Shown here piece after piece: positions 2,975 to 54,385 of a stretch of DNA of 64,000 nt (within the stretch, counting starts at the first letter, position 1; each line of letters starts with the position of its first letter). The translations under genes and the position numbers were made by a program. Origin of the DNA: Escherichia phage vB_EcoM_G37-3; sequence record MK327941.1; one strand, 5' to 3'. The notes below the pieces were generated by a model. It made no database searches, had not been told where the DNA came from, and saw only the letters and a list, made by a program, of their open reading frames with translations.

Positions 2975-3510
2975 AGGTCGCGATATAGTACATTATGAAA
3001 ATGAGAACTTGCATTACCAATATTGTAGATAATAAATTCTTCATCCGGCGCTTGCGCTACAAATTGAGTATGAGCAACCGCCACAACCTTAAAAATACGA
3101 TCCGTGATCTTGTGTTTAATTTCTGCCCCTACTTCCATAGGAACATATTCATTTGTTTCTGTTTCAGTCGCAAAACAGCCATCTTCTTCATAAGCACGAA
3201 TAAATCGGTCGCAATCAGTACGCTTAACAAATTCAAGAGTATATAATTCTCGTGAATTGTCGGTATAGACCAATACAGAATTATTATGATAGCGAATCAC
3301 ATACAGGTTATTATCATCGTCAATTACGCAAAAGCTACGGATTCCTTCGCCTTGACTCCAGCAGATATTAACCACCGTTCCTCTAATAAAAAAACTTTCC
3401 TTTAAATTAAAACTAGCCAATGTGCTAGCGTGCATTTTAACAACAACACCATCACCAATTTCCAGTTTACGAAGTTTAACTTCTTTGCTCAGTACACAAA
3501 ACATCATCAT
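2971..3510 (-). CDS. Hypothetical protein (179 aa)
   Basis: ORF starting MMMFCVLSKE with RBS GAGGA upstream and PeSL-type promoter. Confidence 0.5.
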   Translation of the reverse strand: MMMFCVLSKEVKLRKLEIGDGVVVKMHASTLASFNLKESFFIRGTVVNICWSQGEGIRSFCVIDDDNNLYVIRYHNNSVLVYTDNSRELYTLEFVKRTDCDRFIRAYEEDGCFATETETNEYVPMEVGAEIKHKITDRIFKVVAVAHTQFVAQAPDEEFIIYNIGNASSHFHNVLYRDL

Positions 3511-3539
3511 GTTGTCCTCTCGTTGTTTTCGATGTGAGC

Positions 3540-3567
3540 ATTATACATTAGCTAATCATGTTGTCAA
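3540..3567 (-). promoter_or_regulatory. Early sigma70-type promoter
   Basis: Minus strand TTGACA, 16-nt spacer, TATAAT, followed by conserved leader and RBS. Confidence 0.55.
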
Positions 3568-3576
3568 CACCCCAAA

Positions 3577-3606
3577 ACGAAAAAGCCGACCCTTTCGGAT
3601 CGGCTG
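3577..3606 (-). terminator. Rho-independent terminator downstream of nrdD
   Basis: Minus strand hairpin AGCCGATCC-GAAA-GGGTCGGCT followed by T-rich run. Confidence 0.6.
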
Positions 3607-3610
3607 AAAT

Positions 3611-5473
3611 TTACATGTGCTTAACGCGGTTTACCATCTCGGAGTGTTTCCCGTGGTTGAATGGACGCAGATCAACAGATCCAAGATATCCACTAACGCG
3701 ACGGATAACATTCATCTTTTCCAGATTGTCATTACCGCAATCAGGACAAACAAAACCAGACTCGGTCGCTCTCATTTCCTTAGTGGATCCGCATACATGA
3801 CATACATCAGAAGGAGTATTAACACCGAAGTAGTGCAATTTATCCATTGCATAGTCTACTACAGTTTCAAGACCTTTCAGGTTGTTTTTCATGTCTGGGA
3901 ACTCAACATAAGAGATCATGCCACCGGACGCCAGCCAGTGATAATCTTTCTCAAAGTCGATTTTCTCAAATGGAGTGACTTTCCGGTCTACGTCAAGATG
4001 GAATGAGTTGGTGTACCAGTCTTTATCGGTAGCACCCTTAACAATACCAAATTGCTCTCGGTCCAGTCGATTAAATCGATAGCAAAGGCTCTCGGCTGGC
4101 GTACCGTAAAGACTAAACCCAAGTCCGGTTTCATCCTTCCATTTTTCAGTATAATGACGCAAGATCTTAAGAATATGTTTACCGTATCGCTGCGCATCTT
4201 CCGAATCAAACGGATGAACATCAAACAGGACGCTCAATACCTCATGTAAACCAATATATCCAAGAGAGATACTAGCGCGACCATCTTTCAGAACTTCCAA
4301 AATTTCATCGTTTTGATGAATACGGAAAAATGCACCTTCTGTATACAGTACAGGAGCAACATTGGCTTTAGCCCCTTTTAAAGCGTCTACGCGACTCATG
4401 AGCGCATCAAAGCAAATAGGCATACGATTAGCTAGCTCTTGTTCGAATAGCTCAATTCTGCGCATTACAGACGCTTTACCAGCACGACGCGCGGCAATAA
4501 GGGCAATACGCGGAAGATTTAGAGTCACAACACCTAAGTTATTACGTCCGTCTAATACTTCTTCGCCTTTCTCATTATGCCACACACCCAGGAAGCTACG
4601 ACAACCCATCGGGCTAACCGGAACACTAGATCCGGTGATACTACGGTTATTCTTCGCAGAGATATAATCAGGGTAAAGACGCTTACTCGAACATTCCAAT
4701 GCAAGTTGCTTAATGTCGTAGTTCGGATCTTCCGGTTTAAGGTTTAATCCTTCTTCTAAGAACATCACCAGCTTAGGAAACACCGGAGTGATACCATCTT
4801 TACCTAAACCTTTAGTTCGAACGTTCAGGATCGCTTTCTGAATCAGTTTTTCTTCCCAGCTAGTACCCATACCAAAGGTTAAAGTCACAAAAGGCGTTTG
4901 ACCGTTGGTGGAGAACAAAGTGTTGATTTCATATTCCAACGCTTGATACCCGTCTAAAGTTTCTTTTTCTGTCTTCTCTTGTGCATAGAGAGTATCAGCT
5001 TTGATTCCGTAGGTTTCGGCATCAGCAAGGTGTTTATGATATGTTTTCTCAACATACGGTGCTAACACCTGATCGATGTTTGCGATTGTGGTCCCGCCAT
5101 ATTGATGACTTGCCACCTGTGCGATAATTTGAGCGGTTACAGCACAAGCAACGCCGATTGATTTCGGACTTTCGATTTGTGCGCTACCCAATTTAAAACC
5201 ATTCTCTAACATGTCTTTTAGATTAACAAGACAGCAGTTAGTAAACGGCATAGCGGGTGCATAATCCATATCATGATAATGAATATCACCGTCTACATGC
5301 GCTTTATAGATGTGCTCAGGTAACACGGTTTTAGCAATCTGTTTAGACACAGCACCAGCAATCAGATCTCGACGTGTCGGGAATGTTCGCGCGTCTTTGT
5401 TCGCGTTCTCTTTGCTTACTTCGTTTTCTTTACCCGTTGCGATCTCTGTAATGTCTTTGATTAGTTTTTCCAT
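3611..5473 (-). CDS. nrdD: Anaerobic ribonucleoside-triphosphate reductase NrdD (glycyl radical enzyme), uninterrupted
   Basis: 620-aa ORF collinear with T4 NrdD (FPTRRDLIAGAVSK, PFTNCCLVNLKDMLENGFKLG, C-terminal Cys cluster CHVCGS...CPDCG). Confidence 0.95.
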   Translation of the reverse strand: MEKLIKDITEIATGKENEVSKENANKDARTFPTRRDLIAGAVSKQIAKTVLPEHIYKAHVDGDIHYHDMDYAPAMPFTNCCLVNLKDMLENGFKLGSAQIESPKSIGVACAVTAQIIAQVASHQYGGTTIANIDQVLAPYVEKTYHKHLADAETYGIKADTLYAQEKTEKETLDGYQALEYEINTLFSTNGQTPFVTLTFGMGTSWEEKLIQKAILNVRTKGLGKDGITPVFPKLVMFLEEGLNLKPEDPNYDIKQLALECSSKRLYPDYISAKNNRSITGSSVPVSPMGCRSFLGVWHNEKGEEVLDGRNNLGVVTLNLPRIALIAARRAGKASVMRRIELFEQELANRMPICFDALMSRVDALKGAKANVAPVLYTEGAFFRIHQNDEILEVLKDGRASISLGYIGLHEVLSVLFDVHPFDSEDAQRYGKHILKILRHYTEKWKDETGLGFSLYGTPAESLCYRFNRLDREQFGIVKGATDKDWYTNSFHLDVDRKVTPFEKIDFEKDYHWLASGGMISYVEFPDMKNNLKGLETVVDYAMDKLHYFGVNTPSDVCHVCGSTKEMRATESGFVCPDCGNDNLEKMNVIRRVSGYLGSVDLRPFNHGKHSEMVNRVKHM

Positions 5474-45492: not shown

Positions 45493-45500
45493 TATAAATA
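45493..45500 (+). promoter_or_regulatory. T4-type late promoter TATAAATA upstream of gene 9
   Basis: Exact TATAAATA about 27 nt before gene 9 ATG. Confidence 0.6.
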
Positions 45501-48838: not shown

Positions 48839-50242
48839 ATGAATAACACTATTAATCACGTAAAAGACGATGCACAGTATGTTAAGTTTGACCCTACCGG
48901 AAATTGGCCTAGCAATATAAAAAACGTACAAGCGGCATTAGCCGCTATTCAGGGATTTGCGATTGCAGGTCTTCCAACGGCAACCGAAGAAACAGCGGGT
49001 ATTGCTGAAATTGCTACTCAACAAGAAGTAGATGATGGGTTGGATGGAACGAAAATTGTTACCCCAAAAACATTGGCTGTTAAGCTGTCAAGACCGGACG
49101 CAACAAAACTTGTCAAAGGGATCACTCGCTATGCTAATAACGATGAAGCTATGGGCGATACTCCAAATATTGCAATTGGTCCTGATACATTAACCCATGT
49201 ATTCGAGAACAAGAAAGCAACGGAAACCGTACAGGGTACAATTAAAATCTGTTCTATGGATGCGGCAAAAATAGGTAGCGATGACACTATGGCAGTAACG
49301 CCTAAAAAGATGCACGCTGCTATTGCTCAGATTGTTCCAGGGTTGATTCCAGAACAAAACACGGCGACCGAGTCCCGTGAGGGTTTAGTTAGACTGGCGA
49401 CAAGCCAACAAACGCTTGCTGGTACTATCAGAGAAGGATTTGCCGTTAGTCCATATGCATTTTCCAACGCAAGAGCCAATGAAAATCAGGCGGGTACTGT
49501 TAAAATTGCCTCATCCCAACAAATGATTGACGGCAATGACAACACAGTAGTAGTATCAGCACAAAAATTTGCGAACACTAAAGCAACCACTGGACAATTC
49601 GGTGTTGTTAAGCTAACAGATAACCCAGGATCAGGCGAGGCAAACACAGCACTGTCGGCAAACGCTCGTGTATTGCCTCTAAGTGGTGGTGTCGTTACTG
49701 GTGATGTGTATCGTCATAGCGGAGGCGACGGAAACCAGTTTATCATTAAAAATGAACTGGATGGTCTTTGTATGCCTATTGGTGGCATCATTCTTACAGC
49801 ATTTAACAGTTTCGACCACGCACAATTCAAAATCTGTAACGGTCAATGGTTAAATAAACACCAATATCCAGTATTATTTTCACGAATCGGTTTCACTTAT
49901 GGCGGAGATGGTGGAGACAACTTTGCTCTACCCGATATGCGAGGGCTTGTTGCTAGAGGATGCGACCACGGTCGAGGACTAGACCCAGGTCGTGGATTTG
50001 GTACTTATCAAGACGACACCATGCAACATATGACAGGTAACTTCCCTGTAGCTAACCGTTGGCGCGGTTGGACTGGTGGTGCATTTGCCATCACAGGCGG
50101 TCAATGGAGCACGAACTATAAAAACGGTGGTGGCGATGATTGGGGTAGTATTGTTAACTTTGACAGCGCAAGACAGGTTAGAACGTCTGGCGAAACTCGC
50201 GTTAAAAGCCTTGCATTAAACTACATGATAAGGGTACAATAA
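48839..50242 (+). CDS. 12: Short tail fibre protein gp12
   Basis: YVKFDPTGNWPSNIKNVQAALAAI and repeated GT-x-KIA / GVVKLT motifs as in T4 gp12. Confidence 0.88.
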   Translation: MNNTINHVKDDAQYVKFDPTGNWPSNIKNVQAALAAIQGFAIAGLPTATEETAGIAEIATQQEVDDGLDGTKIVTPKTLAVKLSRPDATKLVKGITRYANNDEAMGDTPNIAIGPDTLTHVFENKKATETVQGTIKICSMDAAKIGSDDTMAVTPKKMHAAIAQIVPGLIPEQNTATESREGLVRLATSQQTLAGTIREGFAVSPYAFSNARANENQAGTVKIASSQQMIDGNDNTVVVSAQKFANTKATTGQFGVVKLTDNPGSGEANTALSANARVLPLSGGVVTGDVYRHSGGDGNQFIIKNELDGLCMPIGGIILTAFNSFDHAQFKICNGQWLNKHQYPVLFSRIGFTYGGDGGDNFALPDMRGLVARGCDHGRGLDPGRGFGTYQDDTMQHMTGNFPVANRWRGWTGGAFAITGGQWSTNYKNGGGDDWGSIVNFDSARQVRTSGETRVKSLALNYMIRVQ

Positions 50243-52011
50243 TGATCGAACAGTTAAACATTCGAAAGATCCCTAACGTCGATGGTGTCCCTGGAGAGGG
50301 ACAGCATTCTATTAGCTGGATTAAAAATGGTGAATGTCTAAGCGCAGCAACCACAGAAACAGGACACGAGGGGACGCTTAACCGCGCCCCTTATGCGATT
50401 CAAGAAAATATTGTTCGTCTGGATGAAAATTCTAAGACAACGGTAACAAAAGTTAACGAAGTTGTTACAGCAGTTAATGATATTAAAACTACTTTAGGCG
50501 CGGTTGCTGATGGTAGTATTATTGATATTGTCAATCAAACTATTGCAAAGGTTGAGTCTGTAGAAGAAAATTTAGGAGAAACTTCAAGGACATTACAAAC
50601 CACAGTAGATGAACTGGCGGAGACAGGAAAGAAAATTGGTGTTCGTCCGGCAGCAGATCCGAGTACACGAACAATATATGATGATATTTCTTTCATCAAA
50701 CAAGAATTGGGCGCTTTCCCTAACTTCAATATCAACGGTTCTCCAGATCCGGGTAGTTCCGGTTCCGGTATCAAATATCGAGTTATCCAGAATACGGAAG
50801 CATTAAACAACCACGGTCAGCGAATCCGCCAACTAGAAAACGACTGGCAAGATTCTGACGTTGGAGAGCTAACAAAACAAGTTAACAAAATGCGAAGCGA
50901 GCTAGGCGATACATCACTAGCAACACAGGACAATGTTTATCTTCGTCTTCGCACAAATACTCGCAATATCGCTAGTATATCAAACGAAGTTCAGGAAGTA
51001 AAGAAAGCGATTCTATTTGAATCAATTCCTGATATCGGGACTAAAGTAACTAAGCTACAATCTGATTATACACAGCTTAATGATGAAGTCAACGGCGTTG
51101 ACGCTGGTATCCGTCCTCGTTTAACTCTTCTGGAAAATAATATTGGCAATCCTCAAGCCGCTGGAAGTATTGATTATCGATTGACTAATCAAGAACGGGA
51201 ATGTGTAGATCTTAAATCTGTTGTCGGTGTTAGTGGTGCTGATGGCCTACGTGGTGAGGTTGCACGAATATCTAACACAGTTGGTACTGATAGTGAGCGT
51301 CATACTATCGCAGGTCGTCTAAAAATTGTAGAAAACACACAGGGACGACTAGAAGCTAGCGTACAGGATATCGAGCAAATGATCGGCGATCGAGATTCCG
51401 GTCTAACCGCCGGGGTTATTAAGCTGTCAAGCGACATGTACGGTAATCCAGAAGGAAGCACGCAGCTTGAACAAGATGGGATCGTGAAAACTGTTAAGGA
51501 ATTGAGCACATCCAATGCAAGTAAGGTAACAGACGTTCCTGATGATGGTTTCCATTATCTACGTAAGCACGGGGAATGGGTTCAGGTCGCATGGGCGGCT
51601 GGTGCATTTAAAAACACCGCTCAGATTGATATTACTCTCGACGGACAAGATCAATACAAAGGAATCCCGCTAAACGATATGACCGAAGAAGTTCCTGCGC
51701 GTGGAATGGTTAAGAGCGAATCTATTGTTACGGTTAACGACAAAGGCTTATTCCGTTGTGTTTTCCGTTGTTCTGTACATGCTGCACATAACGCTACTTT
51801 CGTAGTCGGTATTGCTAAAAATGGTCAGATTGTACATGAGGTACGAAATGGTCAGTATGGAACTGATGATTTAATTAGCTATTCTACCAGTGCTTTCCTA
51901 AATATTGAAAAGGGCGACCGGATCGATATTCGCATTAAGGGCGTATCCGAAGAAACATTAGCGCAACAGCTACAAATTAAAGAGTTCCTCTTTGGAATTT
52001 CTCCGGTATAA
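50242..52011 (+). CDS. wac: Fibritin (whisker antigen control) Wac
   Basis: N-terminus VDGVPGEGQHSISWIKNGE matches T4 fibritin; coiled-coil body. Confidence 0.85.
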   Translation: MIEQLNIRKIPNVDGVPGEGQHSISWIKNGECLSAATTETGHEGTLNRAPYAIQENIVRLDENSKTTVTKVNEVVTAVNDIKTTLGAVADGSIIDIVNQTIAKVESVEENLGETSRTLQTTVDELAETGKKIGVRPAADPSTRTIYDDISFIKQELGAFPNFNINGSPDPGSSGSGIKYRVIQNTEALNNHGQRIRQLENDWQDSDVGELTKQVNKMRSELGDTSLATQDNVYLRLRTNTRNIASISNEVQEVKKAILFESIPDIGTKVTKLQSDYTQLNDEVNGVDAGIRPRLTLLENNIGNPQAAGSIDYRLTNQERECVDLKSVVGVSGADGLRGEVARISNTVGTDSERHTIAGRLKIVENTQGRLEASVQDIEQMIGDRDSGLTAGVIKLSSDMYGNPEGSTQLEQDGIVKTVKELSTSNASKVTDVPDDGFHYLRKHGEWVQVAWAAGAFKNTAQIDITLDGQDQYKGIPLNDMTEEVPARGMVKSESIVTVNDKGLFRCVFRCSVHAAHNATFVVGIAKNGQIVHEVRNGQYGTDDLISYSTSAFLNIEKGDRIDIRIKGVSEETLAQQLQIKEFLFGISPV

Positions 52012-52018
52012 GAAATTA

Positions 52019-52041
52019 AAGGGGCGTTAAGCCCCTTTTCC
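52019..52041 (+). terminator. Rho-independent terminator after wac
   Basis: Hairpin AGGGGC-GTTA-AGCCCCT followed by TTTT. Confidence 0.6.
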
Positions 52042-52057
52042 GTTTATAGGTGATATT

Positions 52058-52990
52058 ATGTCAGGATATGTAACCAATAACCCAAGAGAATTAAAAGACG
52101 CTATTCTGCGTCGTTTAGGCGCACCAGTAATTAACGTAGAAGTCACAGAAGACCAGATTTACGATTGTATTCAGAGAGCACTAGAACTCTATGGGGAATA
52201 TCATTTCGATGGTGTGAATAAAGGATATAAAGTATTTCGTGTTAGTGCAGAGCAAGCGCAACACGGGGTATTTGATTTAAGCGATTCTGGAGTATTCGCA
52301 GTAACTAAAATAATTCGAACAAACGTAGGTAGCGCGGCTACGATGGATGGTACTGCCGTTTATCCGTGGTTTACTGACTTTCTGTTGGGTTTAGCGGGTG
52401 TAAATGGCGGTTTAGGATCTGGCTGTAGTAAATTTTATGGTCCAAATGCAATGGGCGGTGATCTGGGATATTTCGAACAGCTTATGAGCTATCGCGCAAC
52501 TATGCAAAATATGCTCAATCCGCTTCCAGATTATTGGTATAATAGCGCAAACGGACAACTTAAGATTACAGGAAACTTCCGAGAAGGTGATCTCATTGTT
52601 GTTGAATTATATGTTAAAAGCTATATAGACGTTCCTGATATGATCGGTGCGGTTGCTGGTTATGCTCATGCGGGAGGATGTTCTACCGCTGGCGGGATTA
52701 GCGCCGTTTATGATAACCCAACTGCTGGTTTAAGCGGGATTGTTGCTGGCATGGGACCGATCCGTGATAACAAGCAGGGCGCATATAATAACCGTTGGGT
52801 TAAAGACATGGCAACCGCTTTCACTAAGGAGGTGTGGGGGTCCATCATGGCTAAACATCAAGGTCTGCAATTACCCGGAGGTGTCACTGTTGATGGTATC
52901 CGAATCATTGAAGAAGCACGCGCCGACATTGAGAAATTGCGACAAGAACTACTTGACTTAGATCCACCATTTGGTATACTAATGATTTGA
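52058..52990 (+). CDS. 13: Neck protein gp13
   Basis: 310-aa ORF at gene 13 position after wac. Confidence 0.8.
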
Positions 52991-53007
52991 TTTATTGGGG
53001 GAGTATT

Positions 53008-53652
53008 ATGAAAAGACGAAACACATTTTTACGATTGTATGTTACCGAATTTTTATCATCCTCCGGCAAAAAGATATATGGAGGGAAACGACACTCTCCA
53101 TATAAAAATTTCGAATCAGACCCGTATGTCGGGTCTGGAGTGATTATAAAACGAGCAATAGAAAAATATGGAAAGGATTGTGTAATTTCCATATCTTGGT
53201 CAAAACCATTTGAAACACCAGAATTATTGAAAGAGGCCGAAGAATTATTAATAGACGAACTCAAAGACAAATATTCCTATTTTTGCGCTAATTTGGTTAA
53301 AGGTGGACAAGGTGGTTCATATTATGACAAAGACAAAAATCCACGCGTAGGAAAAAAGAGAACTAAAGAAAGTCGAAATAAAATGTCAGAGGCAGCAAAA
53401 AATAGAAAATGGACAGAAGAAGGGTTGAAACGTAGAATCGAAGCAACAATTAAAATGAAAAAAACAGCAAAAGTCCCAGATTTTTCTGGCGACAAAAATC
53501 CAGCCGCAAAGAAAATACAGGTAGGAGATCTTATTTTTAATACTGGAAAAGAATGCGCGAAATATTTTAATATATGTCAAGCAACGGTCATAGATAGGTG
53601 CAAAAATCAACGTCCTAAATGGAAAGAATGGAGATATTATGATTCAATATAA
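53008..53652 (+). CDS. GIY-YIG homing endonuclease (Seg-like)
   Basis: [24 protein letters not shown] (GIY-x10-YIG) and C-terminal basic DNA-binding region; ATG at 53008 with RBS GGGGGA. Confidence 0.7.
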
Positions 53653-54385
53653 TTCTAACTTATTCGCAAGACTAGAAAATGGTAGCGGATATGATAAAAC
53701 ATACGCGACGGAGATTTTAAATCCGTGGGTGAATTTTAATTCACATACAAACACCCAGACGTTAGCCGACGTTATGGTCGCCGAAGCTATTCAGATGCGA
53801 GGTGTAGAATTATATTACATCCCTCGTGAATTTGTCAAACCAGATATGATATTTGGTGAGGATGTTCAAAGCAAATTTACTAAAGCATGGAAATTTGCGG
53901 CTTATATTAACTCATTTGATGGGTATGAAGGAGCGGGTAACTTCTTCTCTAGTTTCGGTTATCAAGCCAATGATGAACTAACTTTTACGGTTAACCCCAA
54001 CCTATTCAAGCATCAAGTAGATGATCAAGAGCCAAAATCAGGTGACTTGATTTATATTCCAATGAGTAATGATTTATTTGAAATCTCATATGTAGAGCCA
54101 TATCAGCCGTTTTTTCAGGCTGGCAAAAATGCCATGCGTAAAATTATTGCAGAGAAATTCGTGTATAGCGGCGAGGAATTGCGACCAGAATTACAACGCA
54201 ATGAGGGAATTAATGTTGATGAGTTTGCGGATCTGGACCTTGCACCGATCACTAATCTGGACGGATTAACAGATATCAACTTAGAACAGTACAAAGAAGA
54301 TAAGCAATTCAGAAGCGAAGGACAAGATTTTATTGACCCGTTTGATCCTATTAATGGCAAGGGTTCACCTTTTGCTAATTTTTGA
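53639..54385 (+). CDS. 14: Neck protein gp14
   Basis: 248-aa ORF at gene 14 position. Confidence 0.8.

Follow-up and report, generated by a model that had tools for sequence, protein, structure and literature searches.

In phage T4, the proteins SegA to SegG are free-standing GIY-YIG homing endonucleases that take part in intronless homing and marker exclusion, with SegC listed among the active ones (PMC2988022), and in T4-related phages SegH/Hef replace mobC/mobE near the nrd genes (cited in PMC2988022). The subject of the present work is a gene that appears to belong to this class, a homing endonuclease gene (HEG) of 214 codons between the neck genes 13 and 14, at positions 53008 to 53652 on the plus strand of a 64,000-nucleotide stretch, hereafter the window, of Escherichia phage vB_EcoM_G37-3 (MK327941.1). 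The window matches Escherichia phage vB_EcoM_G5211 (MK327947.1) at 100% identity; this is a Krischvirus, an RB49-like T4-type phage, and we refer to the carrier as G5211 throughout. The element is already annotated in GenBank, where its coding sequence QBO66392.1 bears the product name "putative group I intron endonuclease", and it is a new, uncharacterised member of a well-known endonuclease class; our literature search found no paper on this element. By analogy with the T4 Seg enzymes, we consider it probable that the gene encodes a Seg-class homing endonuclease that is still active or was so until very recently, of a lineage specific for the 13/14 junction of T4-like phages, and that it spreads by intronless homing. 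Competition between the intron endonucleases of SPO1 and SP82 was reportedly described by Goodrich-Blair and Shub in 1996.

With the T4 Seg proteins the product shares the same catalytic motif set, namely Y..Y-x(10-13)-IYxG-x-[H/R], D-x-Y-x-G-S-G, A-I-x-K-Y-G, E and N-L..G-G, as well as the class consensus YIGxH...DxYxGSG..IKxAIxKYG...E...YNLxxGGxGG, and, like the T4 seg genes, this HEG is intergenic and poor in promoters, lies within a host operon, occurs only sporadically in close relatives and is accompanied by a co-converted or recoded flank. Its lineage differs from them by a two-residue insertion in the β1–β2 hairpin, by YGG in place of YIG and by a "WSK" strand, and its recoded tract abuts the insertion (0–120 nt), whereas SegF and SegG cut hundreds of base pairs away. 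The product is 32% identical to T4 SegC over 89% of the length (tblastn, E 8e-6); several GenBank records of relatives use the name SegC, and orthology with it was rejected given this low identity, the position of T4 segC between 5.1 and 5.3, and the empty 13/14 junction of T4. In the case of I-TevI, from the td intron of T4, we found the best structural match for both domains (PDB 1ln0/1mk0 for the catalytic one, 1i3j for the DNA-binding one), the same two-domain layout in which the GIY-YIG domain is tethered to a C-terminal helix-turn-helix, and aligned Y, Y, G, E and N active-site residues; in contrast to I-TevI, the HEG is not intron-encoded, has a linker without a zinc finger, shares only 17–22% identity and bears a Seg-class loop in place of the Arg27-bearing α-helix.

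Family, fold and free-standing status of the endonuclease

The reading frame begins with ATG, is intact and coincides with the GenBank coding sequence, in agreement with the original prediction of a 214-residue frame between genes 13 and 14, made from the nucleotide sequence alone. That prediction had also let the gene overlap the stop of gene 13, which is incorrect because 17 nt separate the TGA of gene 13 (52988-52990) from the HEG ATG; the overlap that it claimed with the start of gene 14 does exist, the last 14 nt of the HEG, including its stop TAA at 53650-53652, being shared with gene 14. An in-frame TTG at 52987, which would overlap the gene 13 stop, was tried as an upstream start and rejected, given that the homologues begin 3–6 residues before the RLY strand and that GenBank uses the ATG. 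In the 64-kb window this frame is the sole Seg-like match, with no other Seg-like gene found. The gene and its predicted parts are as follows:

53008..53652, plus strand: type A HEG, a free-standing Seg-class GIY-YIG homing endonuclease gene with an ATG start, 214 amino acids, intact
53008..53322, plus strand: GIY-YIG catalytic domain, residues 1–105, from profile alignment to I-TevI and the predicted fold
53038-53040, 53077-53085, 53239-53241 and 53290-53292, plus strand: codons of Y11, of Y24 and G26, of E78 and of N95, respectively
53335..53388, plus strand: single NUMOD3-like motif in the linker, residues 110–127 (Pfam PF07460, E 0.011, below the gathering score; remote homologues carry PF07460)
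53488..53637, plus strand: I-TevI-type helix-turn-helix DNA-binding domain, residues 161–210 (Pfam PF20987, E 3e-4, sub-threshold)

Profile and model evidence together support the assignment of the N-terminal domain to the GIY-YIG superfamily and of the C-terminus to an I-TevI-like DNA-binding function, as the original prediction of a Seg-like GIY-YIG endonuclease had it. The protein matches PHROG 314, "homing endonuclease", with E 9e-36, and a family profile made from 13 homologues recovers more than 3,000 proteins, many of them with Pfam GIY-YIG (PF01541), SegE_GIY-YIG (PF19835) and NUMOD3 domains. The AlphaFold2 model, calculated with 120 homologues, has a mean pLDDT of 91.3, and its N-terminal domain shows the β-β-α-β-α order of the GIY-YIG superfamily core, in which helices flank a three-stranded β-sheet. 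Profile alignment with hhalign to residues 1–98 of I-TevI, whose sequence we verified against PDB 1mk0/1ln0, gave a probability of 87.5% and E 3.6e-6, with Y11, Y24, G26, E78 and N95 of the HEG product equivalent to Y6, Y17, G19, E75 and N90 of I-TevI. This alignment and the predicted strands set the GIY motif at L10-Y11-V12 and the YIG motif at I23-Y24-G25-G26, so that the register proposed earlier (KIYGG...PYVGSG) has to be shifted: GIY is LYV, YIG is IYGG, and PYVGSG is the Seg-class D-x-Y-x-G-S-G motif that follows both. Among the 120 Seg-like homologues, E78 and N95 are invariant, Y11, Y24 and G26 are kept in 118–119, and the G5211 protein retains every invariant or nearly invariant residue, that is, Y11, Y24, G26, D38, Y40, G42-S-G44, K53-Y54-G55, E78, N95 and G99-G100. 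The C-terminal half is basic and matches NUMOD3 and the I-TevI helix-turn-helix, as foreseen in the form of a basic DNA-binding tail, and the C-terminal domain aligns with the I-TevI DNA-binding domain (PDB 1i3j) with a profile E of 1.3e-5 and a Foldseek probability of 1.00.

The GenBank product name would imply an intron-encoded endonuclease, a reading to which we give practically no credence. It could draw on the I-TevI-like domain layout and on a partial match to NCBIfam TIGR01453 ("group I intron endonuclease"; E 3e-10), which at 40.4 bits stays below the cut-off of 56.05 and leaves the first 36 profile positions unaligned. An Rfam search at permissive thresholds, on the other side, found no group I intron at the locus; the HEG sits between two complete genes, 13 and 14, each with its own start, and relatives with an empty site have there a plain 36-nt spacer. 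On these three grounds the group I intron was rejected, and since Rfam finds no intron, we take the GenBank name as a family label; the gene is free-standing and inserted between the neck genes, just as first proposed.

Distribution at the 13/14 junction and recoded flanks

We surveyed about 51 distinct Krischvirus genomes, whose flanks at this junction are 94–98% identical. The 13/14 spacer is empty in about 38 of the 51, 36 nt long and with a G5/C5 hairpin. The type A HEG is present in two, G5211 and Brandy; type B (271 aa) in six, namely KFS-EC, Makalu_001, Makalu_002, MIZ4, MIZ5 and PHB13; type C (194 aa, annotated SegC) in four, Phi1, ECD7, kvi and phiS; and a fourth type (311 aa) in E26 only. 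These four types share 28–49% identity, the window protein being 28–34% identical to the other three, and those of type B, type C and E26 are separate lineages with more NUMOD3 repeats than type A. The Phi1 SegC, KFS-EC-type and E26-type genes resemble type A in site, orientation and enzyme class, and the stops of the Phi1 and E26 genes also overlap the gene 14 ATG; unlike type A, types B and C are each preceded by a promoter and a stem-loop of their own. The Phi1 "SegC" was already noted as a Phi1-specific gene compared with RB49 (PMC2839356). In E26, the gene (714-1649 of locus L016) is annotated as "hypothetical protein"; its C-terminus, ...STSEKWKEFYYV, matches Phi1 SegC and the remainder is closer to type B, which suggests domain shuffling between HEG lineages. 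In Brandy, at about position 2570 (locus coordinates), GGCAAAAAG becomes GGTAAAAG, a 1-nt deletion plus a substitution that brings a stop after 44 codons; the remaining 193 HEG codons are intact in another frame, with three amino acid changes, and this copy either became a pseudogene very recently or owes the frameshift to a sequencing error in the homopolymer.

In T4, genes 13 and 14 are separated by 1 nt, with no endonuclease gene there, so the absence from T4 stated in the original prediction is borne out. A comparison of this junction among relatives, which it had recommended, found the gene sporadic both in Krischvirus (2 of about 51) and in Dhakavirus, and universal presence was not seen. 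Relatives of type A, with 52–65% identity, occupy the same junction in Dhakavirus MX01, Gaprivervirus SP18, Slopekvirus phT4A, Klebsiella T4-like phages and two metagenomic T4-like contigs, and their stops overlap the gene 14 ATG as well. Among several dozen Dhakavirus phages, a homologue is found in MX01 and vB_EcoM_005, and the site is empty in JS98, JS10, WG01, QL01, Bp7, IME08 and many others.

The flanks of the HEG carry the following features:

52058..52990, plus strand: gene 13, upstream, neck protein / head-tail adaptor (PHROG 211, E 4e-40; annotated neck protein)
52952..52981, plus strand: L2 allele, the recoded last ~30 nt of gene 13, with 12 substitutions relative to RB49 and ELELL to ELLDL as the only protein change
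52953..52980, plus strand: candidate sigma-70-like promoter made by L2, with TTGACT, a 16-nt spacer and TGgTATACT (extended -10), 28 nt upstream of the HEG ATG
52991..53007, plus strand: residual 13/14 spacer; of the RB49 hairpin, the left arm and the loop remain, and GGGGGAG (52997-53003) is now the HEG Shine-Dalgarno
53630..53652, plus strand: entanglement with gene 14, where the HEG codons W-R-Y-Y-D-S-I hold the gene 14 Shine-Dalgarno GGAG (53630-53633) and ATG (53639)
53639..54385, plus strand: gene 14, downstream, neck protein / head closure, with a chimeric 5' end (Pfam PF11649, T4_neck-protein, E 4e-101)
53639..53710, plus strand: gene 14 nt 1–72, foreign or recoded, encoding 24 amino acids, two codons longer than in RB49; candidate immunity region
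53717..53755, plus strand: R2 allele of gene 14 (nt 79–117), with 13 substitutions relative to RB49

Downstream of the HEG, gene 14 is altered within sharp limits. Its nt 4–72 have 39 differences from KFS-EC or RB49, followed by identity; the first 24 residues of gp14 are 50% identical to RB49 and the rest of the protein 97–99.6%. Upstream, gp13 of the window is 98.4% identical to RB49 gp13 in amino acid sequence. The N-terminal gp14 segment is about equally distant (46–54%) from every sampled genus, and therefore its donor lineage is unsampled; in a donor search the closest proteins were just 61–65% identical, from the same junction of other T4-like phages, whose gene 14 starts are no nearer to that of G5211 than RB49's is. 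Dhakavirus offers a replicate, in which MX01 with the HEG and WG01 without it do not differ in the final 322 nt of gene 13, and 21 of 33 differences in gene 14 fall in nt 1–90, nearly all of them synonymous, with none in nt 91–470 (Fisher p 3e-13). Sharply bounded recoding beside an HEG is expected from co-conversion from a diverged donor or from selection for a cleavage-resistant allele (mechanism reviewed in PMC2988022). Given that the HEG-bearing alleles of two genera have a recoded gene 14 5' end, the target is probably there, most likely in the first ~70–120 nt of an HEG-less gene 14 and/or in the spacer hairpin. As a side observation, nt 79–117 of gene 14 exist in at least four Krischvirus alleles (that of RB49, that of G5211/KFS-EC, that of Sf20/JSE/GoldenSnicker and that of Phi1) amid nearly invariant surroundings, a polymorphism hot spot that possibly reflects repeated HEG-associated conversion.

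The HEG is further entangled with the translation start of gene 14. The KW(K/E)xW codons that give GGAG before the gene 14 ATG also occur in MX01, SP18, the Klebsiella phages, phT4A and the two metagenomic relatives, and the same GGAG/ATG arrangement is present in the unrelated Phi1 and E26 HEGs. Since the last HEG codons contain the ribosome-binding site and the start codon from which gene 14 is translated, clean loss of the HEG should be difficult. The MX01 insertion is precise, at TAATT|ATG. No hairpin sequestering a ribosome-binding site, of the kind that controls some T4 endonucleases, was found around the starts of the HEG or gene 14.

A second layer of flanking polymorphism links type A with type B. 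A search of the whole database located L2 in G5211 and in all six type B phages but in no others, empty-site phages included; Brandy, also type A, carries the RB49 allele at the end of gene 13. R2 at 100% identity is confined to G5211, Brandy and KFS-EC in the whole phage collection. G5211 is thus composed of L2, type A and R2, and KFS-EC of L2, type B and R2, on nearly identical backbones, and the borders of the swap between them (52981/52987 and gene 14 nt 72/79) coincide with the ends of homology. Shared flanks around different cassettes, with borders at the homology ends, are what double-strand-break repair would leave after a cassette swap, and they suggest that in G5211 and KFS-EC one element was replaced by the other, in a direction that cannot be told from the data.

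From this we put forward, as a possible rather than a probable reading, that the 13/14 spacer is a contested site at which at least four GIY-YIG HEG lineages compete and types A and B have displaced each other, with G5211 as a doubly immune hybrid (L2 against type B, the recoded gene 14 start against type A) that holds its rival's early promoter. If so, each enzyme would cut genomes with the other element, and repair would copy in the rival cassette. Different HEGs at one locus in close relatives, with flanking markers that travel with the winner, are likewise the pattern of the SegH/Hef and SPO1/SP82 cases; in contrast to these, here at least four GIY-YIG lineages are involved in one late-operon spacer, with hybrid flanks.

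Proposed homing and its alternatives

We infer the following steps by analogy with the T4 Seg enzymes, and this includes cleavage activity, target position and promoter use. In a mixed infection, the NUMOD3 and helix-turn-helix modules would bind at or near the 13/14 junction in the DNA of a relative that lacks the HEG, and the tethered GIY-YIG domain would make a double-strand break, most likely within the first ~70–120 nt of gene 14 and/or the hairpin. Recombinational repair would then copy the HEG together with the recoded gene 14 5' end into the recipient, and the carrier would be immune because its gene 14 start is recoded and its hairpin disrupted. Transcription would take place within the late wac-13-14 operon and, in G5211, possibly also early, from the sigma-70-like promoter at the end of gene 13.

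Several observations weigh against an active enzyme of this kind, or against its frequent spread. A single-sequence Pfam search of the protein gave no match to PF01541 (GIY-YIG) or PF19835 even at E<=1, the TIGR01453 match is only partial, and Foldseek against the PDB returned no GIY-YIG structure for the model. As regards the catalytic Arg and Glu, whose absence the original prediction had set against its own reading, the Glu is in place (E78, invariant, and likewise the Asn N95), and for the Arg the helix that bears Arg27 in I-TevI has no aligned counterpart in the hhalign alignment. Candidates for an equivalent are R28, at a position that is [H/R] with 84 H and 30 R among the 120 homologues, and R49, which aligns to I-TevI R47 and is R or K in 64 of the 120; MX01 has Asn there, and R49 thus varies within the family. 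In Brandy, a 1-nt deletion in an A-run truncates the type A copy, 98% identical to that of G5211, after codon 21. The left joint, at 53007/53008, lies within the hairpin loop of RB49 (TTGGGGGAGTATT|CCCCCA in RB49 and TTGGGGGAGTATT|ATGAAA in the window); this hairpin, of -12.9 kcal/mol in RB49, no longer forms in the window. The divergence of the HEG between genera (56–65% identity) is about that of gp13 and gp14 (56–66%), and therefore long residence in each genus may fit, rather than frequent hopping between genera; a lineage long resident in each genus, with loss, may account for the divergence as well as frequent transfer does. Our literature search found no cleavage or preferential-inheritance data for this protein or its lineage.

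Part of these points could also be read as the signs of an inactive or decaying relic, which once homed and no longer cuts, and which is kept in G5211 because its 3' end supplies the ribosome-binding site and start of gene 14. The truncation of the Brandy copy, the rarity of the gene (two genomes of the ~51), the Arg27 equivalent that cannot be assigned, and the conservation in the family of the 14-nt overlap with gene 14 and its embedded GGAG would all agree with this. We nevertheless hold a relic to be quite unlikely, given that the G5211 frame is full-length, that every invariant or nearly invariant residue across the 120 Seg-like homologues is retained in it, that the fold is predicted with confidence, and that the G5211 and Brandy copies are 98% identical and therefore speak for recent spread; the Brandy indel, in turn, is situated in an A-run and may be an artefact of sequencing. 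A different account would make the nuclease a passenger of recombination that needs no endonuclease and takes place at short homologies and at the G-run/C-run stem-loop, similar to the promoter and stem-loop (PeSL) shuffling of RB49 and phi1. The left joint falls exactly in the RB49 hairpin loop (GGGGGAGTATT|CCCCC), and crossovers in the loops of such stem-loops have been reported without any endonuclease, in a study that also described cassettes of a sigma-70 promoter and a stem-loop for these phages (PMC2839356); promoter and stem-loop elements precede the type B and C HEGs, and here the HEG has the promoter-like element of L2 upstream of it. This account leaves unexplained how the same HEG lineage also reached this junction in other genera, at least four, which lack the hairpin, with a precise insertion in MX01, and why a sharply bounded recoded tract of gene 14 is found in two genera, and the 13/14 spacer is part of a conserved late structural module and not of a hyperplastic region. 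We consider recombination with a mere passenger unlikely as the whole explanation, and the two mechanisms are not exclusive, given that the first cross-lineage entry into Krischvirus may well have used the hairpin.

Homing by an active or very recently active Seg-class enzyme would on its own make this gene a routine selfish element, and only the pattern of a contested site and the hybrid flanks go beyond routine interest. One short spacer in an essential late operon, empty in most Krischviruses and occupied by four endonuclease lineages in others, offers a clean natural system, in which the recoded flanks, with their sharp limits, point to the probable place of cleavage. Should crosses bear this out, the locus would make a convenient model of how homing endonucleases compete, and could show how essential structural genes are reshaped by such elements; here, gene 14 has received a new translation start and new codons 1 to 24. 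In therapeutic cocktails of RB49-like phages, such enzymes could also skew the inheritance of markers.

Transcription signals and neighbouring observations

The promoter-like site within L2 scores 10/12 plus the TG and is among just nine sites of at least 10/12 on the plus strand of the 64-kb window, with a chance expectation of ~0.03 such sites in a 60-nt interval (0.003 with the TG); the RB49 allele does not have it. Early transcription of the HEG from this site is plausible from its sequence. Cassettes of a sigma-70 promoter followed by a stem-loop, PeSLs, have been described for RB49 and phi1 (PMC2839356). The elements upstream of the type B and C HEGs, each preceded by its own promoter and stem-loop, resemble these cassettes (PMC2839356), whereas the promoter-like site of the window lies inside coding sequence, with only half of the hairpin left and a local fold that is not stable. 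No T4-type late promoter (TATAAATA) was found near the locus, the nearest plus-strand sites being at 45493 and 57572 and the window total at or below chance, and since this is so, late transcription of the HEG is assumed only from its operon context.

On the minus strand, inside gene 14 at 53809-53838, TTGACA-18 nt-TATAAT matches the sigma-70 consensus perfectly; it runs antisense to the late operon, in the direction of the HEG. The 64-kb window has just six such 12/12 sites. This one lies within a stretch that is 100% identical in RB49, KFS-EC and G2494, and it could drive an early "anti-late" transcript. Between wac and gene 13, at 52018-52038, we also noted a G/C-rich palindromic stem-loop (AAAGGGGC...GCCCCTTT), which is annotated as a terminator in G2494 and Makalu_001 and resembles the stem-loop half of a PeSL.

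A fifth Seg-like HEG, of 251 amino acids, is located one gene further downstream, between genes 14 and 15, in three Krischviruses: G2494 (3309-4064 of locus L005), FL20 and AV108. Beside it, the gp15 gene of G2494 (4065-4953 of the same locus) is annotated as two coding sequences, 4065-4454 and 4513-4953, which could be a frameshift or an error. Upstream of gene 13, the 3' two-thirds (~51000-52000) of the wac/fibritin gene (50242-52011) are 42–86% identical to RB49 and Brandy, 96–100% identical to G2494 and largely so to KFS-EC, and the fibritin gene is thus a mosaic among otherwise nearly identical Krischviruses, judging from these alignments.

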